From IMG/VR virus record IMGVR_UViG_2537561685_000014, positions 1 to 17,832 of that record: DNA of 17,832 nt. One strand, given 5' to 3'. Under the pieces are notes generated by a model that was not told the origin of the DNA, made no database searches, and saw nothing but the letters and a program-made list of their open reading frames with translations. The translations under genes and the position numbers were made by a program. Positions 1 to 7,877 of the stretch are shown piece by piece. Every line of letters begins with the position of its first letter. Positions within the stretch are counted from its first letter, which is position 1. Origin of the DNA: a virus. Its lineage: Duplodnaviria > Heunggongvirae > Uroviricota > Caudoviricetes.

Positions 1-91
1 ACAGCTTACGAACCTGAGGAGTAAGAGACCAGGCGGGGGAGAATCCCTCGCCACCTCTGATGTGTCAGGCATCCTCAACGCACCCGCACTT

Positions 92-118
92 AACCCGCTT
101 CGGCGGGTTTTGTTTTTT
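92..118 (+). terminator. Intrinsic terminator-like hairpin
   Basis: Stem CCCGC / GCGGG with loop TTCG, followed by TTTTGTTTTTT. It lies inside the 5' part of the 62..469 ORF, so it probably ends an upstream transcript. Confidence 0.5.
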
Positions 119-190
119 CCTAGCATTCTGGTTTACAATTCGCACGCCAGCCTGAACAACTGGCACCTGCTGCGCCAGCAGAGACAACCG

Positions 191-469
191 ATGGCGCACG
201 ATACCAAATTACACAATTCTGATGATTCTGCCGTCTTTGCCAGCAGGCACGGGCGGCGTTCCCGCACTTTCAAATCTGACTGGTTCCAGCATCCCCCATG
301 CACTGAAGAACAGGCCGAGTGGCTAATTCAGTGCTACCGCAGACACGGATACGAGATTAAGAAAGCCCTCAGCCTCGATTATCGTCACTGGATAATCTCC
401 GTCAGGCTTCCTTACTCCGAACGCCCACCGCGTCCGTCCCGCACATTCCAGCAACGCATCTGGAGGTAA
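191..469 (+). CDS. Hypothetical nin-region protein (92 aa)
   Basis: First ATG after the terminator hairpin, in the frame that stays open back to the window edge; stop 2 nt before the next gene. No family recognised. The start could instead be GTG 62 or lie upstream of the window. Confidence 0.4.
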   Translation: MAHDTKLHNSDDSAVFASRHGRRSRTFKSDWFQHPPCTEEQAEWLIQCYRRHGYEIKKALSLDYRHWIISVRLPYSERPPRPSRTFQQRIWR

Positions 470-470
470 C

Positions 471-1517
471 GTGCGGGTATTACTTCGACCTGTTCTGGTA
501 CCGGAACTCGGGCTGGTGATCGTTAAGCCGGGCCGGGAATCCATGCCGGTATTCCACAATACCCGGGTACTGGTGGAGCCGGAACCGAAAAGCATGCGTA
601 ATCTGCCGTCCGGGGTCGTTCCTGCCGTTCGCCAGCCGCTAGTGGAAGACAAAACATTGCTGCCGTTTTTCAGTAACGCACGGGTGATTCGTGCTGCTGG
701 TGGTGCTGGTGCATTGTCTGACTGGCTGTTGCGCCATATTAAATCCTGCCAGTGGCCTCATGGTGATTACCATCACAGCGAAACCGTCATACATCGTTAC
801 GGTGCTGGCGCGATGGTGTTGTGCTGGCACTGTGACAACCAGTTGCGTGACCAGTCCTCCGAATCACTTGAGCAACTTGCTCACCAAAACCTGTCAGCAT
901 GGATGATTGATGTCATGCGCCATGCAATGAATGGCACACAGGAGCGGGAATTATCGCTGGCTGAATTATCCTGGTGGGCTGTCTGCAATCAGGTGGCGGA
1001 CGCACTACCGGAGGTAGTATTACGTCGTTCTCTGGGGTTACGTGCGGAAAAAATTCGCTCGGTGTACCGCGAAAGCGACATCGTACCGGGAGAGCAGACC
1101 GCCACCAGCATACTGAAGCAGCGCACAAAAAATCTTGCGCCGCTGCCTCACGCCCACCAGCAAAATCCACCACAGGAAAAGACGGTGGTCAGCATTGCTG
1201 TTGATCCGGAGTCTCCGGAATCTTTCATGAAGCGACCTAAACGTCGCCGTTGGGTAAATGAGAAATATACGCGCTGGGTAAAGACACAGCCGTGTGCGTG
1301 TTGTGATAAGCCAGCCGACGATCCCCATCACCTGATTGGTCATGGTCAGGGCGGAATAGGGACAAAATCCCACGATATTTTCACGCTACCGCTGTGTCGG
1401 GAGCATCACAACGAGCTTCATGCGGATCCGCTGGCGTTCGAAGAAAAGCATGGTTCCCAGATTGATTTAATTTTTCGTTTTCTTGATCGCGCCTTTGCAA
1501 CCGGCGTGCTCGGGTAA
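471..1517 (+). CDS. DUF968/YdfU-like nin-region protein with C-terminal HNH-like Cys/His motif
   Basis: 348-aa ORF with GTG start 4 nt after GGAGG. C-terminus has PCACCDKP...DPHHLIGHGQGG...LPLCREHHNELH, an HNH/zinc-finger-like pattern that I recall from YdfU-type prophage proteins. Confidence 0.55.
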   Translation: MRVLLRPVLVPELGLVIVKPGRESMPVFHNTRVLVEPEPKSMRNLPSGVVPAVRQPLVEDKTLLPFFSNARVIRAAGGAGALSDWLLRHIKSCQWPHGDYHHSETVIHRYGAGAMVLCWHCDNQLRDQSSESLEQLAHQNLSAWMIDVMRHAMNGTQERELSLAELSWWAVCNQVADALPEVVLRRSLGLRAEKIRSVYRESDIVPGEQTATSILKQRTKNLAPLPHAHQQNPPQEKTVVSIAVDPESPESFMKRPKRRRWVNEKYTRWVKTQPCACCDKPADDPHHLIGHGQGGIGTKSHDIFTLPLCREHHNELHADPLAFEEKHGSQIDLIFRFLDRAFATGVLG

Positions 1518-1529
1518 AAGAGGTTACTG

Positions 1530-1901
1530 ATGCGTATAGAGTTTGTTTTGCCTTACCCGCCGACGGTGAACACCTACTGGCGTCGTCGTGGCAGCACATA
1601 TTTTGTATCAAAAGCCGGTGAGCGTTATCGCCGGGATGTGGCACTTATTGTCCGCCAGCAGCGGCTGAAATTAAACCTGTCCGGAAGGCTGGCAATAAAA
1701 ATTACTGCAGAGCCGCCGGATAAGCGCCGTCGGGACCTGGACAATATCCTGAAAGCACCGCTGGATGCACTGACGCATGCGGGGCTTCTCATAGACGACG
1801 AGCAGTTTGATGAAATCAATATTGTGCGCGGTAAGCTCGTTCCTGGTGGTCGGCTGGGCGTGAAGATTTGCGAAATTAGAGGTGATAGTAATGGGGCGTG
1901 A
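1530..1901 (+). CDS. rusA: Holliday-junction resolvase RusA
   Basis: 123 aa; ATG preceded by AGAGG. Motifs LPYPPTVNTYWRR, PDKRRRDLDNILKAPLDALTHAGLLIDDEQ and GGRL match the RusA pattern. Typical position just upstream of Q. Confidence 0.85.
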   Translation: MRIEFVLPYPPTVNTYWRRRGSTYFVSKAGERYRRDVALIVRQQRLKLNLSGRLAIKITAEPPDKRRRDLDNILKAPLDALTHAGLLIDDEQFDEINIVRGKLVPGGRLGVKICEIRGDSNGA

Positions 1902-2244
1902 TATGTATGAGGTTTTAGACCGCTGGGGGGCATGGGCTGCAGCAGAAAATAGTGGTGTCGATTGGCAACCGATAGCAGCGGGCTTCAAGGGGCTTTTACC
2001 TCATGGTAAAAAGTCACGGATTCAGTGTGATGATGACGAAGGCATTATGATAGACAGTTGTGTGGCTCGGTTGAGAAGGTATAAACCAGAGGAATATGAG
2101 CTCATCATAGCCCACTTTGTTATTGGTATCTCATTACGCACTATTGCCAAAAAGAGAAGGTGTTCAGATGGCACGATTAGAAAGGAATTACAAACTGCAA
2201 TTGGTTTTGTAGAGGGTATTACGAGCGTTATTGCATGTAAATAA
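1891..2244 (+). CDS. Late-gene antiterminator Q, small QuuD/phage-82-like type
   Basis: ATG 1891 preceded by AGAGGTGA and overlapping the rusA stop (the ORF track starts at GTG 1882). Motifs LDRWGAWAA and IAAGFKGL plus Cys-rich centre are typical of small Q antiterminators of defective lambdoid prophages. Confidence 0.75.
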   Translation: MGRDMYEVLDRWGAWAAAENSGVDWQPIAAGFKGLLPHGKKSRIQCDDDEGIMIDSCVARLRRYKPEEYELIIAHFVIGISLRTIAKKRRCSDGTIRKELQTAIGFVEGITSVIACK

Positions 2245-2247
2245 AAG

Positions 2248-2273
2248 CTAAAAGCCACCGTAGTGGCTTTTAG
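2248..2273. terminator. Bidirectional terminator-like hairpin between convergent genes
   Basis: Perfect 11-bp inverted repeat CTAAAAGCCAC / GTGGCTTTTAG with CGTA loop, T-rich on both strands; sits 4 nt after the Q stop. Confidence 0.6.
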
Positions 2274-2450
2274 CATTTTAGGATTGTGCAGGTAATGTTT
2301 TGTTCAATTTAGTAAAGAAGTTAGATTGGCTTGTTACAGTACGTCGACTCTTTCCAGAAGTACTCAACTGAAAGAAATCATTGATGCTTTTGGGTTGAGT
2401 TCTTTCATAGGCTTGCTTAAGTGACATGTGTTCCCCTTGTCTATTTGTTG

Positions 2451-3734
2451 CTATGACCGTGAAAAGTAGTGATGGTTCAGTTCTTTTGCAAAATAGTGCT
2501 TACGTTTAACCCAGATAAAACCATCAGCTTTAGAAATGATTGCAACATCTATGGGGCCTCCCACTGTTTCAGTATCATCGGAGACCTTGCGCTTGAAAGC
2601 GGTTAAATTTACTAATGATTCAGCCATATAAGCTAAATCTTGCTTGGGTAAAAACTCGATCATATTTACGACTTTGTCAACATAGTTTTCTCGGACAAAG
2701 CTATCAATACGCCCCTTGCAATCGGAAACAGTTCTGCGCACTACATCAACTATAGCATCCTTGGCTCCTTCGATATCTGAAGTGGGCACCAAATCTGTGA
2801 TTACTGAATCAATACCATCAAGTAAATCGCCGATAGAACGTTGATACTCAGCATGAAGATTTTGGATAAGATGTGAACTAGCTCCTTGCATGAAAGCAGA
2901 AACTTCATCCTCTTGCGCAAAGGGAGTCACGCCGCAATTAGGAGTGATGCAGCACTTGTCAGCATCTGTGGTTTTCCTTATTTTATCATTAAAGAAGCCA
3001 CAAACTTCATATGATAATACTTTAGGGTAATAGTCTTTATCGCCATAACCTGCAATCACAATCCCAGAGACGGAACCAATATCACTTTGCTTGCATATCA
3101 TAGCTGCCAATACATCACTAACTGCTTTTGTCAACTGTGGAGTTATGGATATTGAATCAAAGTCACTAAACTTTTGAGCAATGATGCGTTGGGTAATTGA
3201 TGAAGCATAGGTTTGGGCTGCTTGTTCATCATCCGGAGTAAAACCATCAAAGTAATTAATATCAGATAATTTTGTAAGGAGATCGTTGCAATAATTCGTG
3301 AGGTCTGTAACAAATTGATTCTTATCGAAGTTAACGAGATATGTTGGTTCGAGACCTTCAGAAAAAGCATCAACAAGCATGCTGAATACAATCTCGCTCA
3401 GGAAGTGATAAAGATGAGCCTCACGCATACCTGGTGTGATGATTGATTTAGCTGACTGTAGATAATTGAAGAAATCCTCAGCATATTCCTCCAAAGAGTC
3501 AAAACATTTAGAGCCTAAATCCTTTCTATAAGCCTTAATGATAAGCTCCCATGGAGCTGTGCAGAGATCACCAGTTCCATATACCATCAAACCTACAGGA
3601 TGATGTTTAGTGAGAGCGAAAAGCTTTTCAGCGCCATTATAGATTTTATGTTTGCCGCCTCCAGAAATCGTTACAGCTGAATCTGCGGCTAAAGCTACTG
3701 CGGTCTTGTTAAATACGGCTATTTCTGCTGTCAT
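2451..3734 (-). CDS. Proteasome-beta/HslV-like Ntn-hydrolase homolog with large extra regions (427 aa); function unknown
   Basis: Long minus-strand ORF, markedly AT-rich compared with its flanks. N-terminus MTAEIAVFNKTAVALAADSAVT fits the Thr1 ... Asp17 ... Lys33 layout of proteasome beta/HslV; VGLMVYGTGDL, IVIAGYGDKD and C-terminal TVGGPIDVAIISKADG resemble other conserved proteasome segments. Family assignment is by recalled motifs only. Confidence 0.6.
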   Translation of the reverse strand: MTAEIAVFNKTAVALAADSAVTISGGGKHKIYNGAEKLFALTKHHPVGLMVYGTGDLCTAPWELIIKAYRKDLGSKCFDSLEEYAEDFFNYLQSAKSIITPGMREAHLYHFLSEIVFSMLVDAFSEGLEPTYLVNFDKNQFVTDLTNYCNDLLTKLSDINYFDGFTPDDEQAAQTYASSITQRIIAQKFSDFDSISITPQLTKAVSDVLAAMICKQSDIGSVSGIVIAGYGDKDYYPKVLSYEVCGFFNDKIRKTTDADKCCITPNCGVTPFAQEDEVSAFMQGASSHLIQNLHAEYQRSIGDLLDGIDSVITDLVPTSDIEGAKDAIVDVVRRTVSDCKGRIDSFVRENYVDKVVNMIEFLPKQDLAYMAESLVNLTAFKRKVSDDTETVGGPIDVAIISKADGFIWVKRKHYFAKELNHHYFSRS

Positions 3735-3768
3735 TTTTTACATAGGGTTTATATGTTGTGTAATGAGA

Positions 3769-3797
3769 AAAATACAAAAAAATTAACGCGTACGCAA
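3769..3797 (-). promoter_or_regulatory. Candidate sigma70 promoter for the minus-strand gene
   Basis: On the minus strand: TTGCGT (3797..3792), 17-nt spacer, TATTTT (3774..3769), about 35 nt upstream of the ATG at 3734. Weak Shine-Dalgarno. Confidence 0.3.
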
Positions 3798-3842
3798 AAA
3801 TTCTTGTAATCTGTTAAGAGTGGTTACTTCGCCACACAGCTT

Positions 3843-3868
3843 AAACCCGCCGTCGAGCGGGTTTTTTT
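3843..3868 (+). terminator. Intrinsic terminator-like hairpin
   Basis: Stem AAACCCGC / GCGGGTTT with loop CGTCGA, then TTTTGT on the plus strand. No obvious plus-strand gene ends here; may insulate the island. Confidence 0.45.
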
Positions 3869-3990
3869 GTACCTGTAAACTTGGTGCAGTACGGTAAACA
3901 CGCTGGTGGTAGTGAATACTGACTTTTTATCTTGCTGGCTTTTTAGACAAGAGTTATTGGTATGTCATGTTAACCAGAAGGGAAAAAGAC

Positions 3991-4185
3991 ATGCTAAAAC
4001 AGCAAGATATGACAGAAACGGCGAAAGTTGTTTTTAATGAATTAAGCATCGAACCGGCAACAGTCGGGGAGATTGCACAAAACACATACCTTTCACGCGA
4101 ACGCTGTCAGTTAATACTGACCCAGTTGGTTATGGCGGGGCTGGCAGATTACCAGTTCGGCTGTTACAGACGTCTTCAGCAATGA
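3991..4185 (+). CDS. Small winged-helix/HTH DNA-binding protein (64 aa)
   Basis: ATG 3991 preceded by AAGGGA (the ORF track starts at an upstream ATG 3967). Segment ATVGEIAQNTYLSRERCQLILTQLVMAGL looks like a helix-turn-helix; overall layout resembles small FaeA/PapI-like regulators (tentative). Confidence 0.5.
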   Translation: MLKQQDMTETAKVVFNELSIEPATVGEIAQNTYLSRERCQLILTQLVMAGLADYQFGCYRRLQQ

Positions 4186-4334
4186 AGGGCTTTTAATTTG
4201 TGAAAATGGGCGGCTGGTGGGTGTTGGTAGCACCTGCCAGCCATTCGCTCATGCTTACTGGTCACAAGCGAACCACGGCCCACTGCTTTAGCGCAAAAGC
4301 AGAGTGAGCCTACCAGAGTTACGCTTACTGATCC

Positions 4335-5381
4335 ATGAAAAATACTGTAAAAATAAACAGTGTTGATTTAATCAACGCTGATTGCCTGCATTTTATTCAG
4401 TCCCTGCCTGATGATTCCATTGACCTGATTGTTACCGATCCGCCTTACTTCAAGGTGAAACCCAACGGTTGGGACAATCAGTGGAAAGGGGACGAAGATT
4501 ACCTTAAGTGGCTGGACCACTGTCTGGCCCAGTTCTGGCGGGTGTTGAAACCTGCCGGAAGCCTTTACCTGTTCTGTGGGCATCGCCTGGCATCTGATAT
4601 CGAAATCATGATGCGTGAACGCTTTAATGTGCTGAACCACATTATCTGGGCGAAGCCGTCCGGACGCTGGAACGGATGCAACAAGGAAAGCCTGCGGGCG
4701 TATTTCCCGGCAACAGAGCGCATTCTGTTTGCTGAACATTATCAGGGGCCATACCAGCCCAAAAATGACGGCTATGCGGCAAAGGGGCGCGAGCTTAAAC
4801 AGTGCGTCATGGCCCCGCTGATTTCTTACTTTCGTGATGCGCGAGAATCTCTGGGAATAACATCAAAACAGATAGCGGAAGCCACCGGAAAGAAAAACAT
4901 GGCGTCACACTGGTTTGGTGCCAGTCAGTGGCAGTTGCCGAACGAGGCTGATTACAAAAAACTTCAGGCGCTGTTCGCGCGTGTTGCAGCAGAAAAACAC
5001 CAGCGCGGGGAGCTGGAAAAGCCGCACCACCAGCTGGTCAGCACATACAGTGAACTGAACCGGCAATATGCCAGCCTGCAGGAGGAGTATAAATCCCTGC
5101 GGCGTTATTTTTCCGTATCAGCTGCTGTTCCGTATACGGATGTCTGGACGCACAAGCCTGTGCAGTATTATCCAGGCAAACATCCCTGTGAAAAACCGGC
5201 AGATATGTTGCGTCAGATAATTACTGCCAGCAGTCGCCCCGGTGATTTGGTCGCTGATTTTTTTATGGGGTCTGGCTCAACAATAAAAGCAGCACTTTCA
5301 CTGGGACGTCGCGCAATTGGCGTGGAACTGGAAGAAGAGAGATTTAATCAGACTGTAACTGAAATAAAAAATAATCGTTAA
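4335..5381 (+). CDS. DNA methyltransferase, beta-class (probably N6-adenine), orphan
   Basis: 348 aa. Catalytic motif IV LIVTDPPYF near the N-terminus and AdoMet motif I DFFMGSGST near the C-terminus; this IV-before-I order is typical of beta-class amino-methyltransferases. GC content is host-like, unlike the upstream AT-rich gene. Confidence 0.85.
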   Translation: MKNTVKINSVDLINADCLHFIQSLPDDSIDLIVTDPPYFKVKPNGWDNQWKGDEDYLKWLDHCLAQFWRVLKPAGSLYLFCGHRLASDIEIMMRERFNVLNHIIWAKPSGRWNGCNKESLRAYFPATERILFAEHYQGPYQPKNDGYAAKGRELKQCVMAPLISYFRDARESLGITSKQIAEATGKKNMASHWFGASQWQLPNEADYKKLQALFARVAAEKHQRGELEKPHHQLVSTYSELNRQYASLQEEYKSLRRYFSVSAAVPYTDVWTHKPVQYYPGKHPCEKPADMLRQIITASSRPGDLVADFFMGSGSTIKAALSLGRRAIGVELEEERFNQTVTEIKNNR

Positions 5382-5549
5382 ATATGCATTTAATAATTTC
5401 TTTATTTCATAAAAAATAAAAATATATACGTATATTTACAAATCTTGATATGATTTTCCATTGAAAAGAGAGCTGGCATTATTAATATCGGTACCCGGTT
5501 CCGAAGGGGATGTAAGCGCGGTCATTTTTATTTCTCTTGAGGAACCTGT

Positions 5550-5625
<76 letters not shown>

Positions 5626-5628
5626 TAT

Positions 5629-5703
<75 letters not shown>

Positions 5704-6061
5704 GAGAAACAAGCCTTATTGTATCGTTGCACTGGCGTATTTTTTATTGCGTGGGAGCAGGTTGTTTTTAAAAGGCATTCTGTTTTCTGGCTGTGATTTG
5801 AGGTCGGTTATAGCCACAGTGCTGTTTTTTACACCACTGGAATGGTGCATTATCGGTGGAAATTGAGCATTTCCTGACAGGGGCCGATGATGCACTATCC
5901 CGGTGTTGTAAATAACACTACAGAGGTGTTCCTCAGTGCGAGGGTGGTTTATGTAACTGTTTAGCGGGAAACCACAGTATTCATGGAGAGATGGATACTT
6001 CGGGGGGCACCCGACACCTCTGTTTTTCTACTACAAAAATGATTCATCTCTGGCATTTTTC

Positions 6062-6088
6062 AACCGCCGTTCCGGGCGGTTTTTTTTA
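6062..6088 (+). terminator. Intrinsic terminator
   Basis: Stem AACCGCC / GGCGGTT with loop GTTCCG, followed by a run of 8 T. Confidence 0.7.
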
Positions 6089-6410
6089 TTCTGAACTCAG
6101 AAAAGAATACACGGGCATTGATATTACCCGTGTGGCAAGGCCATGAAAGCCAATAATGAACTGAGCGCAAAAAAAGCGCGGCTGTCGGATTAACGCCGCG
6201 GGACAAAGTCCGTGAAGAAGAATAAGCATCAGTCTCCTCCAGGAGACGATTTGATATTACTAAGCTTTAAAAATGGTTTAAACCCCCGGATTAACCTTAA
6301 TTTCAGATAAGCTTTATTTCATTTTCTCCGAGCCACGTCAGGCGCATATCACATCAGATAACACCACATAAAAGGTATCTGCGGGTGCCTTTCACGGGGT
6401 GTTTTTTTAC

Positions 6411-6434
6411 GGGCCGCTGGTGGCCCTTTTTTAT
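6411..6434 (+). terminator. Intrinsic terminator, tR'-like, just upstream of the lysis genes
   Basis: Stem GGGCC / GGCCC with loop GCTGGT, then TTTTTTATTT; 17 nt before the first lysis-gene start codon. Position is analogous to lambda tR' ahead of S. Confidence 0.7.
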
Positions 6435-6450
6435 TTACAGGAGAAAAAGT

Positions 6451-6843
6451 ATGTCTGAACCCTTATCCGGTTCCGGCACGGCTGCAGCGCTCGGCGGGGC
6501 GACGGTGTACGGGCTGTTTACCGGAACGGATTTCGGGATTGTGTTTGGTGCCTTTGCCGGGGCGTTATTTGTGGCAACGATGCCGCAGGCGCTTTCAGCC
6601 TGGCGTGTGGCGGCACATTTTCTGGTGTCGTTCATTGTTGGTGTGCTGGGGGCAGAAGTTCTGGCATCCTGGCTGGTAAAGCATACAGAGTTTGACGGTG
6701 CACCTGTCGACGCATTGTGTGCAGTACTGGTGTCAGTGGTGTCGGTGAAGATTCTCTCGTTCATCCACCAGCAGGATATTGCATCACTGGTGTCCGGTCT
6801 GTTCTCCCGTCTGCGGGGCGGAGGAGGCGGCAATGTTAAGTAA
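6451..6843 (+). CDS. Lysis-cassette membrane protein, putative holin (130 aa)
   Basis: ATG 6451 preceded by AGGAG (the ORF track starts at GTG 6385, which would run through the terminator). Three to four hydrophobic helices, Gly-rich charged C-terminus; first gene of the lysis cassette. Confidence 0.5.
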   Translation: MSEPLSGSGTAAALGGATVYGLFTGTDFGIVFGAFAGALFVATMPQALSAWRVAAHFLVSFIVGVLGAEVLASWLVKHTEFDGAPVDALCAVLVSVVSVKILSFIHQQDIASLVSGLFSRLRGGGGGNVK

Positions 6844-7111
6844 CCTTCCCGGATTGCTGAATGTGGCGTTATGCACGGTTATCGTGCTGACGCTCTTTTT
6901 TTATCGTCGTCGTGATTCCAGACATAAACCGTTGATGTCATGGCTGGCCTGGCTGCTGATGCTGCTTTATGCCTTTGCACCACTCAGTTATCTGTGCGGT
7001 CGCCCGTTAGCGGCGAACTGGCTGGCGGTGGGGCTTAATCTGCTGTTCTGCGTGTTGGTTATTCGCGCACGCGGGAACGTTTCAAAAATCTTTGTATTAC
7101 GAAGACGCTGA
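6833..7111 (+). CDS. Lysis-cassette membrane protein, putative second holin/antiholin (92 aa)
   Basis: ATG 6833 preceded by GGAGGAGG, overlapping the end of the previous gene (the ORF track starts at an upstream ATG 6779); three predicted transmembrane segments; stop immediately before the endolysin ATG. Confidence 0.45.
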   Translation: MLSNLPGLLNVALCTVIVLTLFFYRRRDSRHKPLMSWLAWLLMLLYAFAPLSYLCGRPLAANWLAVGLNLLFCVLVIRARGNVSKIFVLRRR

Positions 7112-7112
7112 T

Positions 7113-7658
7113 ATGAAGTCGAAAGATGAAATTTTTGACGAAGTTCTGGGAAAAGAGGGCGGTTACGTCAATCACCCGGATGATAAAGGCGGACCGACAA
7201 AATGGGGTATTACGGAAAAAGTCGCCCGCGCTCACGGATATCAGGGCGATATGCGTGACCTGACACGCGAACAGGCACTGGAAATCCTTGAGGCGGATTA
7301 CTGGTTCGGACCACGCTTTGATCAGGTGGCCGCATTATCCTCTGATATTGCTGCAGAGTTGTGTGATACCGGTGTGAATATGGGGCCGTCCGTAGCATCG
7401 AAAATGCTCCAACGCTGGCTGAACGTTTTCAACCTGCAAGGCAAATTGTTCCCGGATATGGACGCAGACGGGCGTATCGGCCCCCGCACGATTAATGCAC
7501 TACGGACTTATCTGCAAAAACGCGGCAAAGACGGCGAACTGGTGATGCTGAAGGCGCTGAATTGCACGCAGGGCGACCGCTATCTGGAGCTGGCAGAAAA
7601 ACGCGAGGCCAACGAGTCGTTTGTCTACGGCTGGATGAAAGAGCGCGTAGCAGTTTAA
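7113..7658 (+). CDS. Endolysin, GH108-type lysozyme with peptidoglycan-binding domain
   Basis: Motif EGGYVNHPDDKGGPTKWGIT is the glycoside-hydrolase-108 N-terminal signature; C-terminal half resembles a PG_binding_3 domain. ATG 7113 directly follows the upstream stop (the ORF track starts at TTG 7092). No signal-anchor sequence. Confidence 0.8.
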   Translation: MKSKDEIFDEVLGKEGGYVNHPDDKGGPTKWGITEKVARAHGYQGDMRDLTREQALEILEADYWFGPRFDQVAALSSDIAAELCDTGVNMGPSVASKMLQRWLNVFNLQGKLFPDMDADGRIGPRTINALRTYLQKRGKDGELVMLKALNCTQGDRYLELAEKREANESFVYGWMKERVAV

Positions 7659-7752
7659 AAACTGACGCTGAAGTGCTGAACACCCTCAACTCACGCAGGC
7701 TCTTTTCTGGGGTTACGATGAGCGAAAGTAAGGGGTACCGCATCAGATAGCA

Positions 7753-7786
7753 AAAACCCCGGCTGCTGGAACAGTCCGGGGTTTTT
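7753..7786 (+). terminator. Terminator-like hairpin after the endolysin
   Basis: 10-bp stem AAAACCCCGG / CCGGGGTTTT with 13-nt loop, followed by TAGTTTT. Confidence 0.55.
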
Positions 7787-7877
7787 AGTTTTCACGTCAA
7801 AGAGGAAATTGTGAGTAGTGAGTACGGAGAAAATCCTCGTGGGAAAGTATAAAAGATTCTTTTTGAGGTTGTCCATT

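Follow-up and report, generated by a model that had tools for sequence, protein, structure and literature searches.

A small lipoprotein gene in the spanin slot of a phiP27-type phage lysis cassette alternates with Rz/Rz1 among related prophages

The subject of this analysis is the lysis cassette of a tailed phage genome (Caudoviricetes; IMG/VR record IMGVR_UViG_2537561685_000014, positions 1 to 17,832; this whole stretch of 17,832 nucleotides (nt) is denoted the window) and, in particular, a small predicted lipoprotein gene, open reading frame (ORF) B, that is located in the position of the spanin genes. As judged by gene content and order, the segment at 6451-8175 is a phiP27-type lysis module that takes the place of the S-R-Rz/Rz1 genes of phage lambda in a Q-dependent late operon. 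The two-holin and endolysin portion of this module is already known and annotated, and its mosaicism is ordinary; what is new here is that the spanin slot is held by orphan lipoproteins of a small conserved family, which in sister cassettes alternates with Rz/Rz1.

The upstream part of the cassette consists of three co-oriented genes on the plus strand. The first of these, holin1 (6451-6843), encodes a membrane protein of 130 amino acids that belongs to the Phage_holin_8 family and is predicted to be a holin or a holin partner. Residues 1-124 of this protein align with positions 1-121 of the 121-position PF16931 profile, that is, over the full length and above the gathering threshold (E = 3e-22, 79.5 bits with a cut-off of 26.4); it also matches phrog_198, labeled 'holin' (3e-43), and is named 'putative holin' by the NCBI Prokaryotic Genome Annotation Pipeline (PGAP). 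A hydropathy scan delineates hydrophobic segments in this protein at residues 25-77 and 81-107. The second gene, holin2 (6833-7111), overlaps holin1 by 11 nt and encodes a predicted class I-like holin of 92 amino acids (Phage_holin_3_7; PF05449, 'putative 3TM holin', E = 2.9e-21, 75.7 bits with a cut-off of 25.4; phrog_217, 'holin', 2.2e-37) with three transmembrane (TM) segments, at residues 1-25, 33-56 and 58-81 in the hydropathy scan, and a charged, basic C-terminal tail, RARGNVSKIFVLRRR. Both proteins contain only short loops, and the ratio of nonsynonymous to synonymous substitution rates (dN/dS) is 0.20 for each of the two genes. No paper on the function of PF16931 or PF05449 and no experimental work on the phiP27-type cassette was found in the literature.

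The endolysin gene (7113-7658), which starts 1 nt past the holin2 stop codon, encodes a soluble N-acetylmuramidase of 181 amino acids composed of a GH108 domain (PF05838, 1.7e-26, 93 bits) and a PG_binding_3 domain (PF09374, 1.2e-25, 89.9 bits). No hydrophobic segment was detected in this protein at the threshold of the 17-residue window, which indicates that it has neither a signal peptide nor a signal-anchor-release domain. The enzyme is highly similar to Sen1395 of Salmonella Enteritidis (PDB 6V3Z, E = 1.2e-106) and to PDB 6V40 (3.7e-86); the latter is presumably TtsA, as the structure of that enzyme was determined alongside that of Sen1395 (Geiger et al., 2020). The E15 residue within the LGKEGGY motif corresponds to the catalytic glutamate of the EGGY signature, and the groove residues D117, R121 and E165, which were read from the sequence against that study (PMC6996933), are of the Sen1395 type. 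The charged groove of this type has been tied to the hydrolysis of ordinary peptidoglycan as opposed to the specialized substrate of TtsA, the groove of which is uncharged (I116, Q120, Q164, N166); Sen1395 hydrolyzes ordinary peptidoglycan and is unable to replace TtsA (Geiger et al., 2020; PMC6996933).

A previous reading of this DNA, made from the sequence only, had proposed the order membrane protein, membrane protein, GH108-type endolysin at 6451-7658, and this is borne out by the ORF table, Pfam, hydropathy and PHROGs, in which the labels of the three genes are, in order, holin, holin and endolysin. The contrast with lambda S-R-Rz/Rz1 drawn in that reading is equally sound, the module being of the phiP27 two-holin type, here with a GH108 endolysin. 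The overlaps between the genes suggest coupled expression of the lysis functions.

The interval 6300-8345 was scanned for spanins on both strands, in all frames and from every ATG, GTG and TTG start. No ORF in this interval shows the features of an inner-membrane spanin (i-spanin), namely an N-terminal TM domain followed by a periplasmic domain, or those of a unimolecular spanin (u-spanin), a lipobox combined with a C-terminal TM domain, and no lipoprotein is embedded within another gene, the holin and endolysin frames included. The sequence-only reading had noted that no ORF with i-spanin features lies between the endolysin and a terminator at 7753, which is correct and holds beyond the terminator as well; a spanin pair embedded in another frame, the finding that it had named as incompatible with its claim, does not occur in the interval. 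The more general notion of a cassette without a spanin stands in part: the i-spanin, an embedded Rz1 and a u-spanin are all missing, but a lipoprotein gene, ORF B, lies past the terminator and occupies the spanin slot. ORF B is the only ORF with a lipobox in the scanned interval.

ORF B (7993-8175, plus strand), the fourth gene of the cassette, is located 334 nt downstream of the endolysin gene, past a hairpin at 7749-7790, and is annotated as hypothetical by PGAP. It encodes a predicted lipoprotein precursor of 60 amino acids, or of 51 if translation starts at the alternative position 8020, with the sequence MTRKHWTHRMPRTAAKWALVAILVPFFLVG up to the cleavage site at the lipobox and CVSLDKARQLFDTASQVCEIVDGVRQCMQN thereafter. 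The lipobox is LVGC, with cleavage before C31, which is followed by V32; the mature part comprises 30 amino acids and includes the conserved cysteines C48 and C57. The sole hydrophobic segment is the signal peptide (residues 13-37) and the protein has a polar end, QCMQN, so that it differs from u-spanins of the T1 gp11 type; it does possess the defining feature of outer-membrane spanins (o-spanins), being a lipobox lipoprotein without Asp at position +2. The mature part, with 30 residues and no partner, falls short of the length with which spanins bridge the periplasm. The hydrophobic residues of the mature part are, in our own reading of the sequence, spaced in a roughly heptad-like manner.

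Judging from its pattern of substitution, ORF B is a real, constrained gene. Among 43 distinct DNA sequences, dN/dS is 0.21 in frame, compared to 1.1 for the +1 frame and 2.0 for the +2 frame, and the value of 0.165 for the first ten codons (7993-8022) supports the start at 7993. The 139 homologs are all between 47 and 111 amino acids long (mostly 51-60), come almost exclusively from Enterobacteriaceae, and none of them is named; an exhaustive hidden Markov model search of 1.84 billion representatives retrieved only 23 small proteins of like kind, and a scan of genome contigs led to a single Salmonella locus. The divergent subfamily that the exhaustive search added, with the mature part EKARNWFGVAADVCDTVKKIKDRC, retains the size, the lipobox, both cysteines and the basic N-terminus, and the lipobox Cys, C48 and C57 are invariant across the 139 homologs and this subfamily. 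Protein-level conservation extends to the cytoplasmic n-region of the signal peptide (M-x-RKHWTHR-x-PR), even in the subfamily with the altered mature part, and such conservation of a basic signal-peptide N-terminus is unusual. ORF B matches phrog_7528 (5.7e-39), a family of unknown function; no Pfam family was detected at E <= 1, the colicin lysis and entericidin families included, and none in NCBIfam. PADLOC gave no matches at E <= 1 for ORF B, for the preceding small gene, ORF A, or for either holin.

Relatives of the cassette were collected as 80 IMG/VR contigs selected by holin2 similarity alone, 76 of which could be evaluated. The slot after the endolysin contains ORF B only in 55 of the 76 loci, Rz/Rz1 only in 5, neither in 16 and both in none, with the caveat that near-identical prophages are numerous among the 80 loci and that these counts therefore overstate the number of independent events. 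A profile scan of viral contigs with the holin2 alignment returned the same close relatives, and divergent single queries were used thereafter. In the compact cassettes, ORF B follows the endolysin gene immediately: E. coli E24377A and CE0026f have the order holin1-holin2-M15-ORF B, with ORF B 15 bp past the annotated endolysin stop (3994 to 4009), a spacing that the automated measurement counts as 17 nt; the 17-nt spacing from an M15 endolysin is found in 22 loci, the stop codon of the GH108 gene of Yersinia enterocolitica overlaps the ORF B start as ATGA, and in a metagenomic relative with a holin2 only 25% identical, the four genes are in the same order, with ORF B 6 nt after the M15 gene. 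ORF B accompanies the holins on terminase backbones of the lambda type, the P27 type and others, and the spacers between the endolysin gene and ORF B are of at least 14 different lengths, which implies several independent rearrangements. We infer from these arrangements that the cassette ancestrally had ORF B as its fourth gene; here, a 334-nt insert, which contains a hairpin terminator and the small membrane-protein gene ORF A, separates it from the endolysin gene.

The place of ORF B can be taken by Rz. In one locus (L064), Rz starts 18 nt after the M15 gene, exactly where ORF B is found in the compact cassettes. Among Yersinia-type cassettes in which holin2 is 96% identical, some contain ORF B (L093) and others an ORF A-like gene followed by canonical embedded Rz/Rz1 (L184-L187), and a further branch (L188, L189) combines another endolysin with an embedded spanin pair. 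Alignments of the junction DNA are homologous through the ATGA start codon and then diverge into ORF B or Rz. In phage GER2, an intact S-R-ORF A-Rz/Rz1 cassette is followed by a minus-strand ais-like gene and then by an ORF B copy (L005, 3971-4150) that contains three in-frame stop codons. E. coli WGI31CT (L097) carries this ais-ORF B unit, with ais on the minus strand and an intact ORF B, behind a GH108 gene, which is presumed to be the parental arrangement. At the level of gene order and junction sequence, this pattern is the signature of non-orthologous displacement at a single functional slot. Of 5426 complete E. coli genomes, 337 contain a match to window 7790-8180, the interval of ORF A and ORF B.

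Two other arrangements were observed downstream of the endolysin. In one GH108 lineage, represented by L074 (4826-5147) and 13 similar IMG/VR loci, bor is located about 320 bp after the endolysin gene, only a truncated ORF A-like remnant (MKGIEKKV...) is left, and ORF B and Rz/Rz1 are both missing; this looks like a deletion. In the LT-II prophage SerU-LTIIb (L001, 5219-6368), the toxin genes eltIIbA and eltIIbB directly follow the homologous GH108 endolysin gene.

A two-component spanin that includes an ORF B homolog has been reported previously in a computational survey, in which phiP27 is listed with a 'separated' spanin pair that forms a singleton family and has a combined periplasmic length of 62 residues, the shortest in the set (Kongari et al., 2018; PMC6139136). 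According to the supplement of the same paper (PMC6139136), the o-spanin is encoded at 20706-20861, which is the ORF B homolog, and the i-spanin, of 64 amino acids, at 20348-20542. The proposed i-spanin ORF (L002, 4287-4481) has a TTG start and is antisense to an ORF of 90 amino acids (20332-20604, minus strand); it is present in 2 of the 68 loci with ORF B and absent from the other 66. It was rejected as the partner of ORF B on these grounds and, given this distribution, cannot be a general one; the listing is probably a false call. The range of combined periplasmic lengths of known two-component spanins, 62 to 300 residues, takes its lower value of 62 from this doubtful phiP27 call (PMC6139136). 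A scan of the whole phiP27 genome revealed no homology to Rz/Rz1 (E > 0.3) and no other small lipoprotein in the late operon. Phage phiP27 has reportedly been isolated as an infectious phage.

Several other candidates for an ORF B partner were considered. In the compact cassettes, there is no gene between the endolysin gene and ORF B and no gene for a TM protein after ORF B. The downstream genes were discarded, since the ORF of 69 amino acids in E24377A and that of 72 amino acids in L096 encode soluble proteins that are not conserved. A partner embedded in the endolysin gene was excluded, given that ORF B travels with unrelated M15 and GH108 endolysins. ORF A was rejected as an ORF B-specific partner because its homologs precede Rz in GER2 and in Yersinia prophages.

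ORF A (7818-7991, plus strand) encodes a small protein of 57 amino acids from the GTG at 7818, or 37 from the ATG at 7878, with a TM domain at the extreme C-terminus (residues 34-57 of the longer form). It is under purifying constraint by the same measure (dN/dS = 0.10), matches phrog_4493 (3.3e-23), a family of unknown function, and is hypothetical in PGAP. ORF A and ORF B abut, with the junction TGATATG. Members of the ORF A family (window 7818-7991; L005, 2606-2758, in GER2; L185, 1321-1527) share the pattern KYKRFFLRLS...RWW and the junction CGxTGGTGGTGATATGA to the gene in the spanin slot, which is ORF B in the window and Rz/Rz1 in GER2 and the Yersinia prophages; in the latter, the homolog directly precedes Rz, with the junction TGGTGGTGATATGA, as in the window. 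Given the conservation of the upstream KYKRFFLRLS segment in paralogs, the 37-residue PGAP call may be truncated. A tblastn search of phage records with ORF A, which was impaired by low-complexity masking of the TM domain, yielded two hits. An accessory role in lysis is conceivable for ORF A. In other loci, ORF B is preceded by small TM ORFs, of 60 and of 44 amino acids; the latter, a small membrane protein that starts with MSDSIIKLARILCVVVGLSF, is found before ORF B in L024 (5094-5321) and L009 (3867-4001), is also present, regardless of position, in the Rz/Rz1-bearing loci L056, L057 and L059, and can be described as a second variable 'pre-spanin' small TM gene.

The segment 6300-8400 of the window is 100% identical to prophages in several chromosomes of human E. 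coli of the enterotoxigenic (ETEC) type. The PGAP gene order there is hokD, DUF968, RusA, Q antiterminator, a minus-strand hypothetical protein of 427 amino acids, DNA methyltransferase, tRNA-Thr and tRNA-Gly, followed by 'putative holin', 'phage holin family protein', 'GH108 protein', two hypothetical proteins, iss, ylcI, nohD, terminase and portal. The cassette thus occupies the place of lambda S-R-Rz/Rz1 in the lambdoid late operon, with Q on one side and the terminase, portal and head genes on the other. The ORF of 427 amino acids (2451-3734, minus strand), between the Q gene (1891-2244) and the methyltransferase gene (4335-5381), is hypothetical in PGAP and probably a moron. ARAGORN identifies tRNA-Thr(UGU) and tRNA-Gly(UCC) at 5550-5703, between the methyltransferase gene and the lysis cassette, and Stx phages carry tRNAs together with stx at the matching position. 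The terminase large-subunit ORF of the window (10104-12029) is uninterrupted and encodes 641 amino acids; in E. coli 120899, the lysis region of which is 100% identical, the IS66-family element ISCro1 interrupts terL (L004, 12805-17437), so that this prophage copy is defective, though its lysis cassette is identical.

Folding was calculated for three hairpins around the cassette. The first, a weak terminator-like hairpin followed by a T-run (6411-6436, plus strand; -10.8 kcal/mol, z = -1.9), was detected by the promoter and terminator scan; it lies within the Q-dependent late operon, 15 nt ahead of holin1, and is not significant on its own. The terminator that the sequence-only reading had placed at 7753 is a genuine hairpin (7749-7790; -22.3 kcal/mol, z = -4.4; 0 of 200 shuffles fold as well), resembling a bidirectional intrinsic terminator, with an A-run before and a U-run after it; it forms the left end of the 334-nt insert and is absent from the compact cassettes in which ORF B is 17 nt from the endolysin gene. 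No sigma-70-like promoter was detected on the plus strand within 7660-7990. The third hairpin (8316-8340, minus strand; -18.1 kcal/mol, z = -5.3) is homologous to the lambda Rz/bor intergenic hairpin and serves as the bor terminator and the right mosaic junction: in the alignment with lambda, homology starts at this hairpin, directly after the position of the Rz TAG stop codon. The mosaic junction postulated at this site is confirmed by the alignment, and the hairpin, given previously as 8317-8339, is real, but the adjoining region had been called lambda-identical and is only lambda-like. The bor/iss gene (8347-8640, minus strand; 'iss' in PGAP), which encodes a lambda-like lipoprotein of 97 amino acids (PF06291, Lambda_Bor, 5.7e-30) and belongs to the flank, outside of the lysis cassette, is 93.5% identical to lambda bor (275/294).

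We consider it probable, with limited confidence and on comparative genomic grounds, that ORF B is the gene for the outer-membrane step of this phiP27-type module and functions without a conserved inner-membrane partner. By analogy with canonical holin-endolysin systems, the three-TM PF05449 protein would form the membrane lesion, with the PF16931 protein acting as a second holin or a regulator. The muramidase, being cytoplasmic and devoid of a signal, must reach the wall through the holin lesion and would then degrade it. Transcription of ORF B would continue from the late operon, in that the Q-modified polymerase should read through the hairpin at 7749-7790 in the insert. Gene neighborhoods suggest that ORF B performs or enables the outer-membrane step. 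In E. coli, Asp at position +2 causes retention of a lipoprotein, and mature ORF B, with Val or Ala at this position, should accordingly be sorted to the outer membrane. The likeliest mode of action would be that a partner-independent, oligomerizing and possibly disulfide-linked ORF B lipopeptide destabilizes the outer membrane once the murein is gone; alternatively, ORF B might interact with a membrane protein of the cassette or of the host. The lipopeptide mechanism is favored over a classical spanin, speculatively, because ORF B is too short and lacks a conserved partner. It is possible, if rather doubtful, that ORF B represents a new class of outer-membrane disruptors, in which a single gene displaced Rz/Rz1 non-orthologously and dispensed with a dedicated inner-membrane subunit; such a protein would be a disulfide-linked helical lipopeptide that acts like the colicin lysis proteins and entericidins. 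Still more speculatively, the unprocessed precursor could pair with the mature form: if the basic MxRKHWTHRxPR segment, which is under purifying selection, anchors the precursor in the inner membrane and the mature form resides in the outer one, the two ends of a minimal bridge would come from a single gene.

A number of observations weigh against assigning the outer-membrane step to ORF B. All sources name ORF B and its homologs 'hypothetical', a lone lipoprotein that acts as a spanin is without precedent, lambda Rz1 alone is inactive (PMC6139136), and a mature protein of 30 amino acids cannot span the periplasm. The net charge of the mature part is -1, that is, it is not cationic; it is amphipathic to a modest degree, with a hydrophobic moment of 0.31 that does not significantly exceed the 0.17 +/- 0.09 of shuffled sequences, 7% of which reach it; and the AlphaFold2 model, one long helix (the phiP27 homolog is given as 83% helix in the table of Kongari et al., PMC6139136), is of low confidence (pLDDT, the predicted local distance difference test score, of 66). 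The strong hairpin between the endolysin gene and ORF B fits a moron as well. The 16 of 76 cassettes that contain neither ORF B nor Rz/Rz1, 14 of which belong to one GH108 lineage with bor abutting a truncated ORF A-like remnant, together with the LT-II prophage in which toxin genes stand in place of ORF A and ORF B, imply that ORF B is dispensable at least for prophage persistence, and the redundancy of the sampled loci mentioned above further tempers the counts.

Much of this evidence could also be accommodated if the cassette were truly devoid of a spanin, with ORF A and ORF B being morons of the Bor/Iss, Cor or Llp class, involved in lysogenic conversion or exclusion, that simply occupy a site between the lysis genes and the packaging genes at which recombination is frequent; shear would then rupture the outer membrane, or no rupture would be needed. 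This possibility, which we regard as somewhat unlikely, draws on the terminator-like hairpin ahead of both genes, on the known morons that occupy the same interval in relatives (bor/iss, the ais-like phosphatase, KilA-N genes and the LT-IIb toxin genes), on the 16 of 76 cassettes with neither ORF B nor Rz/Rz1, and on the dissimilarity of ORF B to any annotated spanin family. However, no sigma-70-like promoter was detected on the plus strand between the endolysin gene and ORF B (7660-7990), ORF B is coupled or nearly so to the endolysin gene in the compact cassettes (the 17-nt gap and the ATGA overlap), and PADLOC yields zero matches. Furthermore, a moron unrelated to lysis should co-occur freely with spanins, so the mutual exclusivity of ORF B and Rz counts against this explanation: ORF B is never found with intact Rz/Rz1, shares the start-codon junction with Rz, and is a pseudogene where Rz/Rz1 is present, in GER2.

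We deem it unlikely that a true two-component spanin exists here, with ORF B as its o-spanin and ORF A, another small TM ORF, a holin or a host protein as its inner subunit. The published pairing in phiP27 (PMC6139136), the abutment of ORF A and ORF B along with the TM ORFs of 60 and 44 amino acids that precede ORF B elsewhere, and the conserved periplasmic cysteines, which recall the disulfide-linked dimers of Rz1, are compatible with this scheme, but each proposed partner encounters a difficulty. The phiP27 'i-spanin' is the sporadic antisense ORF with a TTG start described above; the compact cassettes have neither a gene preceding ORF B nor a TM gene following it; the TM domain of ORF A is C-terminal, which leaves no periplasmic domain if the N-terminus is inside; ORF A homologs and the 44-residue TM ORF also occur in loci with Rz/Rz1; the holins have short loops only; and 30 amino acids plus at most about 16 cannot bridge the periplasm. 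It appears very improbable that the holin and the GH108 enzyme form a TtsA-like device for protein release (type 10 secretion) that exports a toxin or another cargo rather than virions. The close homology of the endolysin with TtsA, a sub-threshold NCBIfam match to 'holin-associated N-acetylmuramidase' and the SerU-LTIIb cassette located directly upstream of eltIIbAB would agree with this function, but no cargo or toxin gene adjoins the cassette in the window, the cassette lies inside a complete late operon that extends from Q to the terminase, portal and head genes, and the charged groove of the enzyme is of the Sen1395 type.

To our knowledge, current models of phage lysis include only three outer-membrane solutions, namely two-component spanins, unimolecular spanins and a cationic peptide, the disruptin. 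About 15% of the phages of Gram-negative hosts have no identifiable outer-membrane solution. ORF B is a well-defined and widespread candidate for a fourth route, found in ETEC-type E. coli prophages as well as in the phiP27-like phages that carry Stx2e or Stx2k, and the sister cassettes with Rz/Rz1 in the same slot constitute natural isogenic controls. The present analysis also corrects a published computational call, given the lack of conservation of the 'i-spanin' assigned to phiP27. The release of the toxins encoded by neighboring genes, namely Stx2e, Stx2k and LT-II, is under the control of the cassette.

The closest known systems are those of phiP27 (Stx2e; L28-L30 and a small ORF that is not annotated or is named 'L32') and phiSTEC1575 (Stx2k), in which the holins are 88-95% identical to those of the window at the amino acid level (about 92% in DNA) and ORF B is 82-95% identical; ORF A is 100% identical in phiSTEC1575. 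As in the window, the cassette follows Q, methylase and tRNA genes in both phages, but the endolysin is an M15 L-Ala-D-Glu peptidase and stx is located upstream, and in phiP27 the filler between the endolysin gene and ORF B is different. The LT-II prophages SerU-LTIIb and Rac-SA53 share with the window the holin1-holin2-GH108 order and the upstream tRNA-Thr and tRNA-Gly; the GH108 gene of SerU-LTIIb, the record of which names holin1, holin2 and endolysin, is 87% identical to that of the window, but in this prophage the LT-IIb toxin genes stand in place of ORF A and ORF B, and Rz/Rz1 is missing there as well. The Salmonella GH108 muramidases Sen1395 and TtsA have the same two-domain fold and the EGGY glutamate found in the window endolysin; TtsA is specialized for LD-crosslinked polar peptidoglycan and toxin export, whereas the window enzyme resembles the general-lytic Sen1395.

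With lambda Rz/Rz1, ORF B shares the genomic slot and, in sister cassettes, an identical start-codon junction, and like Rz1 it is a small lipoprotein of the outer-membrane type with periplasmic cysteines. Unlike Rz/Rz1, ORF B has no i-spanin, is not embedded in another gene, is not proline-rich, is predicted to be helical and shows no sequence similarity to these proteins, and its mature length is 30 amino acids compared to 40 in lambda, where the partner contributes 130. Colicin lysis proteins (bacteriocin release proteins) and entericidins are mature lipopeptides of about 30 residues that compromise the envelope without an inner-membrane partner; ORF B differs from them in that it has no match to their Pfam families at the threshold used here, contains cysteines and is predicted to be helical. 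The gp28 disruptin of phage phiKT, as outlined in the preprint (bioRxiv 10.1101/515445), is a non-spanin outer-membrane solution in a phage that lacks spanins; the disruptin as outlined there is a cationic peptide of the antimicrobial type, whereas the ORF B lipoprotein carries a net charge of -1 and is not a cationic amphipathic peptide. Another non-canonical lysis factor is Lcc6 of LambdaSo, a membrane protein of 65 amino acids (10.1101/2024.01.23.576932).

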